The position numbers and the translations under genes are program-made. Shown here piece after piece: positions 36,988 through 40,408 of a DNA stretch of 64,000 nt (positions are counted from its first letter, which is position 1; each line of letters begins with the position of its first letter). The notes beneath the pieces are model-generated. The model did no database searches, was not told the origin of the DNA, and was given only the letters and a program-made list of their open reading frames with translations. Source of the stretch: a virus (Duplodnaviria; Caudoviricetes); the IMG/VR virus record IMGVR_UViG_3300016486_001578. The stretch is one strand, 5' to 3'.

Positions 36988-38184
36988 ATGATAAAAGTTA
37001 TAAAGAGAAATGGTAAGAAGGAACCAGTTATGTTGGATAAAATCCTAGATAGAATAACACAACAAACATATGCGCTAGACAATAAATGGATTAGCCCATT
37101 TGATGTTGCACAAAAAGTTATAGCAGGAGTAGCTCCCAATATAAAAACATCTGTTTTGGATCAATTAGCAATGGAGACTGCTGCTTCTTTGGCTACCAAA
37201 CACCCAGATTATTCAATATTGGCCGCTAGATTGGCTATCACCGCATTACATAAAGAAACTAAAAAAAGCTTTTCTGATACGGTTAAGGATTTATATAAAT
37301 ACACAAATCCAATAACAGGCAAGAAAGCACCGATTGTGTCTAGGGAGTTTTATGAATTAGTAAAAGACAACAAAGATGAGTTAGATTCTGCTATCGTCCA
37401 TTCGAGAGACCATAATTTTGATTATTTTGGATACAAAACACTTGAGAAGTCCTATTTACTTAAAACAAACGGTAAAGTAGTTGAGAGACCACAATATATG
37501 TATATGAGAACTGCTTTACAAATATGGGGTGATAATTTAGAAAAAGTTAAATCGACTTATAACTTATTATCAGAGGGGTATTACACACATGCAACACCTA
37601 CTTTGTTTAATTCGGGCACCAATAGGCAACAATTATCTTCTTGTTTTTTATTAGATACAGAATCTGATTCTATTGAGGGTATTTTTAATACACTAAAAGA
37701 ATCTGCTCAAATATCTAAAAATGCTGGAGGAATTGGAATTTCTTTTAATAAAGTTAGAGCAAAGGGAACATATATTGCTGGTACTAATGGCTCATCAAAT
37801 GGTGTTATACCATTCTTGAAGATTTTTAATGAAACTGCTAGAGCGGTTGATCAATGCTTCACACCTGAGTCAAAAGTCATGACAGATAATGGTTTAGTAA
37901 ATATTGATGAAATTAAGAAAGGTGATTCCGTATTAACATCTGATGGTAAGTTTAATAAGGTTTTAGAAAGAAAAGAATTTATAAAAGATGAGGATTTTGT
38001 AGTAATTAAAACAAATAGTGGATTAAATAGGGTAACAAAAGAACACCAAATATTAGTTATTAGAAATCTATCAAAAGATATTGAAGACTCGGCTATTATA
38101 TTAGGTATAAAAAGTGGTGTATATAACATAGAATGGATATCTGCAAATGAACTATTAAAAAGTGATAAAATAGTAAAATATTAA
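36988..38184 (+). CDS. nrdA: Class Ia ribonucleotide reductase alpha, fragment 1 (ATP-cone) plus IntN1 (Cys1 at 37855, 109 aa)
   Basis: VIKRNG ATP-cone, ERPQ, HATPTLFN, LSSC, GGIG and AVDQ|CFTPES. Confidence 0.93.
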   Translation: MIKVIKRNGKKEPVMLDKILDRITQQTYALDNKWISPFDVAQKVIAGVAPNIKTSVLDQLAMETAASLATKHPDYSILAARLAITALHKETKKSFSDTVKDLYKYTNPITGKKAPIVSREFYELVKDNKDELDSAIVHSRDHNFDYFGYKTLEKSYLLKTNGKVVERPQYMYMRTALQIWGDNLEKVKSTYNLLSEGYYTHATPTLFNSGTNRQQLSSCFLLDTESDSIEGIFNTLKESAQISKNAGGIGISFNKVRAKGTYIAGTNGSSNGVIPFLKIFNETARAVDQCFTPESKVMTDNGLVNIDEIKKGDSVLTSDGKFNKVLERKEFIKDEDFVVIKTNSGLNRVTKEHQILVIRNLSKDIEDSAIILGIKSGVYNIEWISANELLKSDKIVKY

Positions 38185-38245
38185 TTTAATATATAGTAAT
38201 ATATACTTAGGTATATCCAAAATATATTAAATACTATTAAATAGA

Positions 38246-39148
38246 ATGATAAAGTTAACAAATGATATAGTTATAGAAAAGTTTATAAAAAAGCATGGAA
38301 ATAAATATATTTATAATTTAGTTGATTATAAAGGTGCAATTACTAAGGTTAGTATAATATGTAGAAAACATGGTTTATTTAAAATAACTCCAAATAGTCA
38401 TCTAAATGGAAGTGGATGTTATGAGTGTGGTAGAGAAAAAGTAAATGTATCAAGATTAACAAATAATGATAATTTTATAAGTAAATGTAAAATAATTCAT
38501 AATGATATTTATGACTATTCAAAAGTTGAATATAAAGGAATAAAAGAGTATGTTGTTATAATATGTAAAAGACACGGTGAATTTAAACAAAAGTCAGCAA
38601 AGCATCTACAGGGACAAGGTTGTAAAAGATGTAGTAATGAGAAAATGTTTGTTAATTTTGAAAAGATGTGTTTAGATAAATATTTAGGATACTCATATGG
38701 TGAAATGATATACAATGGTATGTATAATAAAATCATAATAACTTGTGAGAAACATGGTAATTTTGAAAAGACACCTATAGATTTTTATCACAAAGAAAGA
38801 CTTTGTCCAAAGTGTATAAATAGATGTAAGTCAAATGATGAAACAAAATGGTTAGATGAATTAAATATACCAATTGATAACAGAAATATCTATATAAAAT
38901 TTGGTAAAAAAACATTTTGTGTTGATGGAATAGACTATGATAATAAAGTAATATATGAATTCTATGGAGACTTCTTTCATGGGAATCCAAATGTTTATAA
39001 GAAAGATGACACTAATCCACTATTAAAGGAAACTTATGGTGAATTATATGATAAAACAATGAAGAAAGAAAAAATGATATTAGATAGTGGTTATAAGTTA
39101 GAAACTATCTGGGAAAGTGAATATAAAAAAGAAAAAAGAAAAATATGA
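38246..39148 (+). CDS. Free-standing homing endonuclease (CxxHG...CxxC repeats plus Vsr-like domain)
   Basis: Three ICxKHG repeats; VDG...YEFYGDFFHG...IWESE. Confidence 0.8.
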   Translation: MIKLTNDIVIEKFIKKHGNKYIYNLVDYKGAITKVSIICRKHGLFKITPNSHLNGSGCYECGREKVNVSRLTNNDNFISKCKIIHNDIYDYSKVEYKGIKEYVVIICKRHGEFKQKSAKHLQGQGCKRCSNEKMFVNFEKMCLDKYLGYSYGEMIYNGMYNKIIITCEKHGNFEKTPIDFYHKERLCPKCINRCKSNDETKWLDELNIPIDNRNIYIKFGKKTFCVDGIDYDNKVIYEFYGDFFHGNPNVYKKDDTNPLLKETYGELYDKTMKKEKMILDSGYKLETIWESEYKKEKRKI

Positions 39149-40408
39149 GAGATGTAATTGAAAGTGGTACTGAGTGGATTGAAGATCCAGTAGATCTTAA
39201 CTTAGATATAGACAAATTAAGATTTGAAACTATTGAAGATTTAACAATAGAAGAAATAAAAAATCAAAAAGTATATGATTTGGAGGTTGAAAACCAACAT
39301 AATTATATTGTTGATGGACTTGGATTAGTTCACAACGGTGGAGGTAAATAAGCGTCTGCTTCCACTTTAAAAAATCTGGAGGATTGCTGGGAGTTCCTTA
39401 GAGTTATTAATACTACAACGTAAAGAGTGATCTTATGCGTGAATGTTTGAAAAATTAATAAATTGGATAATCAGCAGCCGAGCATCTTAGGGATAAGATG
39501 AAGGTTCAACGACTAATGTTAGTAATGTAGAAAACAAGAAAACAACACGAGTACCAGACACATATTTTATGTGAAGATATAGTCTAAACTTATATGAAAG
39601 TATAAGAGAATAGGATAAAGAGCCTATTGTTAATACACAAATGAAACGCAAAGGAAGTATTGCTATTTATTTAGAGCCTTGGCACGCAGATGTTATGGAC
39701 TTTTTGGACCTTCGTAAAAACCAAGGTAAAGAAGAATTAAGAGCAAGAGATTTATTTTTGGCTATGTGGGTTAATGATCTATTTATGGAGAGAGTTGATT
39801 TAGATGAAGATTGGGCTTTGATGTGTCCGAATGAGTGTGATGGCCTTAATGAAACATATGGTGAAGAATTTAGAGAACTTTATATGAAATATGAAAGTGA
39901 AGGAAGATATAAAAAGGTAGTAAAGGCTAGGGATGTTTGGAATAAAATATTAGAATCACAAATTGAAACTGGTACTCCTTATATGTTATATAAAGATTCT
40001 ATTAACAGAAAATCAAACCAAAAAAACATAGGAATTATTAGAAGTTCTAATCTTTGTTTAGATGGTGATACTATAGTAGAATGTAGAGTCAATGGACTTG
40101 AAAGTGAATTAACAATGGTACAAATTGATGAAATCTTTAAATCTGGGCAAGAGATAGAAGTCTTAAGTATGGATGTTGCGACTGGTTTAAATGAATGGTG
40201 TTTAGTTGATAATTCAGGAATGACCAACAATGATGCTGAAACTATTAAAATAACCGATGAAGAAAATAACACTATTATATGCACACCAGAACATAAAGTA
40301 TGGACTAGTAATAGAGGTTATGTTATGGCTAAAAATTTAGTAGAGACAGATGAGTTAAAAATCAATAAAAAGTCGATTGTTGACAAAGGGTTATATACCT
40401 ATCTATAA
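39145..40408 (+). CDS. nrdA: NrdA fragment 2: IntC1 (64 aa), GGG^KRKGS...SSNL, IntN2; exons 39145-39345 and 39644-40408
   Basis: VYDLEV...LVHN|GGG; intron removal restores [31 protein letters not shown] (Cys1 at 40055); TPEH. Confidence 0.9.
39346..39643 (+). ncRNA. Group I self-splicing intron (298 nt, no ORF)
   Basis: The 5' exon ends in U and pairs with IGS GCTTCCAC (U-G wobble). P ATTGCTGGGA, Q AATCAGCAG, R GTTCAACGACTA and S AAGATATAGTCT are present, with terminal G at 39643. Splicing restores the conserved motif in frame. Confidence 0.92.

Follow-up and report, generated by a model that had tools for sequence, protein, structure and literature searches.

How can an intein leave its host protein joined when the residue that follows it is glycine? 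Canonical protein splicing, in all three intein classes, passes through a branched intermediate built on a Cys, Ser or Thr at the +1 position. The question is raised by a split intein, here called intein 1, that interrupts nrdA, a ribonucleotide reductase (RNR) gene, in a 64,000-nucleotide (nt) stretch of viral DNA (Duplodnaviria; Caudoviricetes; IMG/VR record IMGVR_UViG_3300016486_001578). The whole of this stretch is referred to below as the window, and the parts of the nrdA locus described lie on its plus strand. The junctions of intein 1 in NrdA read ..ARAVDQ|CFTPES.. at the N-terminal half (IntN) and ..GLVHN|GGG at the C-terminal half (IntC), and the +1 codon, GGT at 39337-39339, encodes Gly. 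Of the class 1 intein features that were examined, all were found in it except a Cys, Ser or Thr at +1, where Gly stands instead. The element is almost certainly a real Gly+1 split intein, and it belongs to a family that resides in loop 2, the specificity loop, of the large subunit of class I RNR. As to how the host protein becomes whole, we lean, with slightly better than even confidence, towards the route of the type A bacterial intein-like (BIL) domains, in which NrdA would be rejoined by way of a Cys1 thioester, Asn cyclization and attack by the freed Gly amine.

The two halves are readily delimited. The open reading frame (ORF) of the N-part, 36988-38184, runs from ..ETARAVDQ straight into CFTPESKVMTDNG and meets its stop 109 residues later. 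IntN (CFTPES...KIVKY, 109 amino acids (aa)) thus named occupies 37855-38181, with the stop codon TAA at 38182-38184, and opens with Cys1 (TGC, 37855-37857). IntC, of 64 aa including its Met, lies at 39145-39336 and closes with ..GLVHN (39322-39336), the terminal His-Asn being intact. Block B reads TKEH, the Asp and the His of block F are both there, and the break point falls between blocks B and F. The 68-aa ORF that carries IntC extends over 39145-39351 and its last letters are GGGK-stop. Its codons GGT GGA GGT (39337-39345) encode Gly+1-Gly-Gly, the first three residues of the C-extein, and are at the same time the end of an exon and the 5′ strand of an intron helix, P1. The coordinates, the lengths of 109 and 64 aa and the motifs, which a preliminary description of the locus had given, came out the same when derived anew. 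Pfam Hint_2 and Hint match the N-part ORF, and the last 31 positions of Intein_splicing (profile positions 125-155) match the 68-aa ORF, all with E = 4e-6 to 3e-5, which is under the curated cut-offs. A profile of 15 related mini-inteins matches solved inteins with E = 1e-16 to 1e-6.

The preliminary description had pointed to AGT or TGT at 39337-39339 as the reading to look for in case the Gly codon was wrong. GGT was found unchanged in contigs of runs X3, X4 and X5, that is, in three other runs from three studies. The comparison is one of assemblies and not of raw reads; the contigs of X2 do not cover the codon, and X1, a possible source, was left out. A sequencing error at +1 was rejected on the strength of these contigs.

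The same description had proposed a survey of NrdA inteins at this site for Gly at +1, and such a survey revealed Gly+1 to be the trait of a large family. For instance, LR756504.1, a 636-kb uncultured phage, carries ..CARAVDQ|CFLEGT.., an endonuclease ORF of 307 aa, an IntC whose junction reads HN|GGG ahead of a stop, and an intron homologous to that of the window. Identity to the window's halves is 49% for IntN and 63% for IntC. A search of IMG/VR by the IntN alignment alone, whose patterns are independent of the C-terminal junction, gave 25 loci, and every one of them ends in HN|GGGK. The search by the IntC alignment, from which 80 of 210 relatives were kept, is biased by its own pattern VHNGGGK. 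When viral sequences were scanned with [VA]HN-x-GG-KR-x-G, a pattern that left the +1 residue x open and required Gly-Gly-Lys-Arg after it, x was Gly in all of at least 120 stretches. Among the 120 matches listed, 113 continue into an RNR C-extein and 91 are distinct contexts. With a +1-free pattern applied to one genome per bacterial or archaeal species, Gly+1 was found in 34 of 35 stretches (33 GGG, one GGK and one SGK), most of which come from metagenome-assembled genomes (MAGs) of Saprospiraceae and other Bacteroidota.

Most of the viral Gly+1 members are contiguous, either minis of 141-154 aa or inteins of 283-415 aa with room for an endonuclease domain. The contiguous members read TA[RK]YVDQ|C..HN|GGGKR[NK]GS, and many of them are on contigs named GVMAG, which we take to be giant-virus MAGs. 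The split form behaves likewise, Gly+1 being present in 10 of the 10 distinct split relatives. Taken with the codon check, these sequence comparisons lead us to regard Gly+1 as real and not an error. Full-text literature searches turned up neither a true intein with Gly+1 nor an RNR loop-2 intein, aside from one table entry for Cafeteria roenbergensis virus (CroV); InBase itself was outside the scope of that search.

Where exactly the intein sits was settled by tiling the extein pieces on a reference of 850 aa, the uninterrupted NrdA of LR756502.1, an uncultured phage. The N-extein (36988-37854, 289 aa) comprises the ATP-cone, the all-alpha domain and the start of the barrel, ends in ..ARAVDQ, matches Pfam ATP-cone, Ribonuc_red_lgN and positions 1-72 of Ribonuc_red_lgC, and is 82.7% identical to residues 3-291 of the reference (..ARAVDQGGGKRKGS..). 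The middle extein (39644-40054, 137 aa, ending in SSNL; Ribonuc_red_lgC positions 75-213) is 83.9% identical to residues 295-431, and the C-extein (40612-41883, 423 aa from CAEIVE... to the end, plus the stop; Ribonuc_red_lgC positions 189-514) is 76.6% identical to residues 432-850. The three Gly residues between the first two of these correspond to residues 292-294. The four pieces of 289, 3, 137 and 423 aa contain no stops, and since they tile the reference NrdA and are open throughout, nrdA is complete when an intron and two inteins have been taken out. The tiling places intein 1 exactly between Gln and the first Gly, as had been proposed. The accompanying claim that the host gene is otherwise complete holds in that the pieces tile the 850-aa relative, but it had overlooked both a group I intron and a second split intein.

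The intron starts 9 nt past the intein 1 junction. The segment 39346-39643 (298 nt, no ORF) is a predicted group I intron of Rfam family RF00028, with a score of 59.2 bits against a gathering score of 50 and E = 9.6e-15 over 39321-39606, when the 351 nt of 39320-39670 were searched. An Rfam scan of 9 kb (34000-43000, E up to 1) gave no intron match; the blank is put down to a filter effect, because the same intron exceeds the gathering score in the shorter search. It is because this intron follows directly that the 68-aa ORF ends in GGGK-stop. In P1, the exon end GGUGGAGGU pairs with GCUUCCAC. The 5′ splice site, which follows GGU at 39345, is marked by a U.G pair in six of seven aligned introns, locus L021 having U-C in its place. 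The core of J8/7-P7 reads AAGAUAUAGUC and the last letter of the intron is G, at 39643. Exon 2 opens with AAA CGC AAA GGA (KRKG..), the frame is restored at the exon junction, and that junction is predicted to read GGTGGAGGT|AAACGC in the spliced mRNA. Eight distinct homologous introns lie at the same spot in relatives, and RNAalifold applied to seven introns gave 67 pairs, 26 of them with compensatory changes. This covariation is supportive and not proof, because the sequences are related. By blastn the intron is 73-74% identical to stretches in genes of Staphylococcus and Bacillus phages, one of which is annotated 'may contain intron'. The gathering score passed, the U.G pair of P1, the J8/7-P7 core and the terminal G are thus what it has in common with the RF00028 introns of phage genes, from which it differs in adjoining an intein junction, in having the 5′ strand of P1 made of three Gly codons and in lacking an ORF.

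The intron goes with the split form of the intein: it is present in 8 of the 10 distinct split-intein loci and in none of the 79 contiguous Gly+1 loci that were parsed. In the closest relative of the window (L004/L029, 4271-5218) the homologous intron measures 948 nt as against about 295 nt, and it probably holds an inserted ORF. Intein 1 and the intron break the same nine-codon stretch (39337-39345 and the equivalent in relatives). As a candidate idea, the free-standing endonuclease encoded between the intein halves may target the uninterrupted site, both inserts protecting it. A separate observation concerns the loop itself. At window positions 39660-39691, runs X2, X4 and X5 contain much deeper contigs of other organisms that match 32 nt of exon 2 only; upstream of this match they read ..ATCAAGGTGGCGGAAAAAGAAAAGG.. 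(DQGGGKRKG), so that they are uninterrupted loop alleles co-occurring with the interrupted one.

Is the intein still functional? All 10 distinct split relatives, whose identity is about 35-80%, retain Cys1, the TxxH motif, the Asp of block F and the terminal His-Asn. In the larger sample, both among 81 sequences with Gly+1 and among 55 with Ser+1, conservation of 90% or more was found for Cys1, the Thr of block A, TxxH, the Asp and His of block F, and G.VHN. We take this conservation as evidence for selection on the chemistry at both junctions of intein 1. A second line comes from two complete bacterial chromosomes with a Gly+1 intein (G001, 4.7 Mb, and G002, 6.9 Mb). Each has a single gene matching PF02867, in which profile positions 1-72 and 69-523 lie in one open frame of 1198 or 1935 aa without stops, and neither chromosome gave a match to PF13597 (NrdD). 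Since a cell needs RNR and these two possess no other catalytic RNR gene, the Gly+1 nrdA must give active enzyme. The genomic result supports something productive taking place at the junctions, without showing what. The frame of 1935 aa (G002:C1:3825085-3828882; L418, L421), from a member of the Cyclobacteriaceae, is far longer than NrdA plus one intein, and probably contains further inteins.

The insertion point is itself informative. It aligns with Q288|G289 of human RRM1, within ..YVDQGGNKRPG.., a stretch which we take to be RNR loop 2. Loop 2 is described as carrying the cross-talk from effector to substrate and as touching both sites (PMC8772380).

The nearest published relative of intein 1 is an intein with a conventional +1 residue. 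The InBase entry for the RNR large subunit of CroV reads ..YVNQ|CFTPDT...GIVHN|SGRRKGSFAF.. (Green, Novikova & Belfort 2018, PMC5784728, supplementary file 3, sheet RNR_RIR). Both inteins are inserted in loop 2 and share homologous HINT blocks (CFTPxT, TSDGxF, TKEH, VYDL.., VHN). The CroV intein, however, has Ser+1 (SGRRKGS) in a loop that is one residue shorter, and it is contiguous and contains an endonuclease domain, whereas that of the window has Gly+1 (GGGKRKGS), is split and is accompanied by a free-standing endonuclease gene. The CroV intein belongs to a wider Ser+1 pattern. A directed viral pattern, in which the +1 codon starts with A or T, found 77 stretches, and all 77 read HN|SG[KRA]R.G; Y[VI]NQ lies upstream in most of these loci, and the loop is again one residue shorter. 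Junction parsing handled 177 loci and left 6 of the 77 Ser+1 loci unparsed. A maximum-likelihood tree was built from 136 distinct sequences (the 81 Gly+1 and 55 Ser+1 members mentioned above), using the first 90 and the last 38 residues of each intein, 128 columns in all; identical rows, inteins shorter than 130 aa and the six unparsed Ser loci were left out. On this tree a single change suffices for the +1 state, and the Ser group, to which the CroV type belongs, forms one clade with a Shimodaira-Hasegawa-like approximate likelihood ratio test (SH-aLRT) support of 98. As the tree carries no root, it gives no direction for the switch between Gly and Ser. Ten split inteins, that of the window among them, form a clade; the nearest neighbor of the window's intein is L004, at 82% identity, and the clade adjoins the contiguous minis L035-L037.

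How might a Gly+1 intein then work? The preliminary description had offered two outcomes, ligation by the freed amine, or cleavage at both ends leaving a nicked loop; the results support keeping the former as the best explanation and the latter as its main rival. For ligation, IntN1 and IntC1 would associate into a HINT fold, Cys1 would form a thioester with Gln-1, and the terminal Asn would cyclize, by which the alpha-amine of Gly+1 would be freed. The amine, which the intein and the folding RNR barrel would keep near, would attack the thioester to give ..VDQ-GGGKRKGS... The residues for the first two steps, thioester formation and Asn cyclization, are present and conserved; that the amine comes close to the thioester, and that ligation results, we infer. 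Type A BILs, which lack a +1 nucleophile and end in His-Asn, are reported to be able to splice in just this way, through a thioester, Asn cyclization and attack by the free amine (PMC4031507, citing Dassa 2004 and Aranko 2013). The intron would add a further level of control. From unspliced mRNA, IntC1-GGGK-stop would be made, which could react with the N-fragment to yield a dead-end product, and RNA splicing would gate productive protein maturation.

Several points weigh against ligation. It is deduced for intein 1 from sequence, and the conservation of the catalytic residues suits cleavage alone equally well. Canonical inteins with a mutated +1 residue usually cleave without ligating. The argument from a sole RNR gene is drawn from bacterial relatives with contiguous inteins, not from the phage of the window. 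Furthermore, no special kinship with BILs is shown, because with the family profile several canonical inteins reach scores equal to or above that of BIL 2LWY (KlbA 1e-16, CDC21 3e-14). The BILs themselves are described as giving predominantly cleaved and not spliced products (PMC7664689, PMC4031507). If intein 1 did the same, the Cys1 thioester would be hydrolyzed, the Asn would cyclize and both halves would leave, so that NrdA would consist of non-covalently held chains nicked between Gln and Gly in loop 2. The same conserved residues would be needed for this, and a parallel is offered by NrdA of phage Aeh1, whose gene was split by a homing endonuclease and which is reported to be active in the form of two unjoined chains (PMC2677866, PMC3045599). 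Nevertheless, the nick would fall in the very loop that is the seat of effector-to-substrate cross-talk (PMC8772380), and ligation should be favored where a thioester and a free Gly amine lie side by side within a folded barrel. The Ser+1 sister clade, moreover, is inserted at the same site and is built to ligate, which suggests that the host needs a joined loop. Cleavage without ligation is held to be possible, though on the doubtful side.

Ligation by the freed amine must also be set against explanations in which no unusual chemistry is needed. The halves of the split intein have to associate in any case, and they could serve as a non-covalent zipper for the pieces of NrdA with no reaction at all, the intein of contiguous relatives simply staying in the loop. 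A zipper has no need of Cys1, TxxH, the block F Asp or His-Asn, yet these are kept in all ten split relatives and at 90% or more in the 136 sequences of the tree; for this reason a pure zipper is unlikely. Inteins of 283-415 aa with endonuclease domains, seated in loop 2 of a sole RNR gene, are also hard to square with activity if they are never removed. Alternatively, a canonical nucleophile might be hidden, the true junction, mRNA or reading being different through another intron splice site, editing or recoding. An intron lies 9 nt downstream, and to that extent mRNA and DNA are indeed not the same. However, HN|GGGKR is encoded directly, with no intron, in the 79 contiguous Gly+1 relatives, P1 with its largely conserved U.G pair puts the 5′ splice site after the GGU that ends at 39345, and on LR756502.1 the extein pieces leave no residue uncovered and none in excess. 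Exon 1 must be the source of the GGG, because exon 2 has no Gly-Gly codons ahead of its AAA CGC AAA GGA; on this ground, and because of the intron-less relatives with HN|GGG, an alternative splice site making Ser or Cys at +1 was rejected. A hidden nucleophile of any kind is very improbable. There remains the thought of an artefact at the +1 codon or of a decaying, dead nrdA. The record is a metagenome assembly and was compared at the level of contigs, but the codon recurs in the three other runs and studies, Gly+1 is found throughout the split relatives, the IntN-only loci and the viral pattern matches listed as well as in nearly all of the bacterial stretches (34 of 35), and the extein pieces are all open and 77-84% identical to an intact relative. 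We give this last explanation hardly any credence.

The likeness of intein 1 to the BILs deserves a closer look. Type A BILs (e.g., Clostridium thermocellum BIL4, PDB 2LWY) share with it the HINT fold, the N-terminal Cys, the C-terminal His-Asn and the lack of a +1 side-chain nucleophile. BILs reportedly belong to variable bacterial proteins that are not essential, are often found as tandem copies and have no link to homing endonucleases. Intein 1 differs in being placed at a conserved site of an essential enzyme, in being mobile, as judged from the endonuclease domains or genes, and in having canonical inteins among its nearest relatives. In the PDB, the BIL 2LWY was the only match of IntN1 alone (E = 0.011), and with the family profile 2LWY was matched over its full length (5e-13), third after the KlbA and CDC21 inteins. 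Among 1.84 billion representative proteins, the nearest relatives include tandem BIL-like arrays (HN|KGGCF..) and canonical Ser or Cys inteins, both at 45-94 bits. The best 150 of these matches, which do not amount to a census, are mostly multi-intein proteins, and where the C-extein resembles loop 2 the +1 residue is Ser in 25 and Gly in 6. Several of the proteins (P0006, P0013, P0028, P0042, P0048-50, P0101 and others) are long tandem HINT arrays in which every domain ends in VHN|K(G)nCF.. and is continued at once by the Cys1 of its successor. In appearance they are tandem type A BIL arrays, and they score 45-82 bits against the RNR loop-2 intein profile.

The arrangement of the locus recalls the fractured genes, in which a split intein goes together with a free-standing homing endonuclease gene, as described for NrdA-1 to NrdA-7, gp41-1 and NrdJ-1 (Dassa et al. 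2009, PMC2677866). The endonuclease gene of the window (38246-39148, 300 aa, assigned by PHROG matches) lies between the halves of intein 1, and its stop overlaps the start of IntC1 by 4 nt, ATGA. The phage setting, an endonuclease ORF between the halves with a stop overlapping the IntC start, and a break between blocks B and F are points on which the two agree. However, the NrdA inteins of that study are placed directly N-terminal to the thiyl-radical Cys, which is the site of the second intein of the window and not that of intein 1, and the available portion of PMC2677866 names no Gly+1 intein and no adjoining intron for nrd loci. Another case is nrdA of Aeromonas phage Aeh1, where NrdA is likewise in pieces around an endonuclease gene and the chains are active unjoined (Friedrich 2007; Gibb & Edgell; PMC2677866). 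Aeh1 is a model for cleavage without ligation, from which the pieces in the window differ by their intact set of intein catalytic residues. Aeh1 nrdA is said to contain no intein and to be split at a different point.

Identification of the 300-aa endonuclease is supported by PHROG 681 'endonuclease' (3.8e-33) and PHROG 559 'HNH endonuclease' (6.2e-25), with weak Pfam matches to DUF723 and DUF4379. In the fractured genes of the 2009 study the endonuclease is of the GIY-YIG or Vsr-like type. Its motif YEFYGDFFHGNP resembles the Vsr-like family by eye only; the Vsr-like label could not be confirmed, since the C-terminal 120 aa gave no Pfam Vsr match at E ≤10, and no PDB match was found for the protein.

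The second intein, intein 2, is also split. Its IntN (CLDGDTIVE..., 117 aa; Pfam Intein_splicing) lies at 40055-40405, or to 40408 with the stop, and its IntC (...NDILVHN, identified from ORFs and Pfam) at 40516-40611 has 32 aa only; the gap of 107 nt between the halves contains no endonuclease gene. It reads SSNL|C..VHN|CAEI at the thiyl-radical Cys site and has a canonical Cys+1 (TGT at 40612). The gene is thus predicted to encode three polypeptides, NrdA(1-289)-IntN1, IntC1-GGG-[exon 2: KRKGS..SSNL]-IntN2, and IntC2-CAEI..end, the second of which would be made only after the intron 39346-39643 has left the mRNA. What is specific to the window is that one gene combines the split form and the endonuclease gene with another split intein, which is canonical, and with a group I intron that begins 9 nt past the first.

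Another gene of the window is in pieces as well. Just upstream, at 32599-35981, a DnaB-like helicase gene is also fractured. Its N-part ends in ..TNGGK|CFFSDGEINT.., with an IntN of about 37 aa; an endonuclease-like ORF of 384 aa (33336-34490, motif EYNGDQYHANP) lies between the parts; and the C-part has an IntC of about 148 aa ending in ..NDILSHN|SLW (Ser+1). The short IntN and the long IntC make this break atypical. Further genes were noted in three regions, 14674-16299, 23040-24743 and 42625-44810. One ORF resembles class I aminoacyl-tRNA synthetases (PF00133, 1e-50). An ORF for a family B DNA polymerase reaches position 152 of a 453-position profile and then stops, so that this gene, too, may be fragmented. 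Two ORFs match Laminin_G_3, and one of them also matches Toxin_R_bind_N weakly.

Our analysis brings to view inteins that are conserved and widespread at a site of an essential enzyme, that have no Cys, Ser or Thr at +1, and that must yet yield active RNR. A chemistry of ligation so far shown only for intein-like domains would here probably be at work in the RNR intein of a huge phage. In the window, RNA splicing and protein splicing are stacked within 9 nt of one RNR loop. It seems to us an evenly balanced proposition that a large natural class of mobile inteins, contiguous, mini and split, in phages, giant viruses and Bacteroidota, ligates without a +1 side-chain nucleophile, the Gly+1 amine making a native Gln-Gly bond, and that the split phage members are natural trans-ligases for partners that start with Gly, gated in this case by a group I intron with the three Gly codons in its P1 helix. 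If cleavage alone were the true outcome, a class I RNR would work with a nicked specificity loop, which is equally unexpected. If ligation is true, a Cys, Ser or Thr at +1 would not be a requirement of inteins, the two sister clades, with Ser and with Gly at +1, would provide a ready-made comparison for what makes the amine attack efficient, and ligation would gain useful tools in natural split inteins whose Gly junction is scarless.

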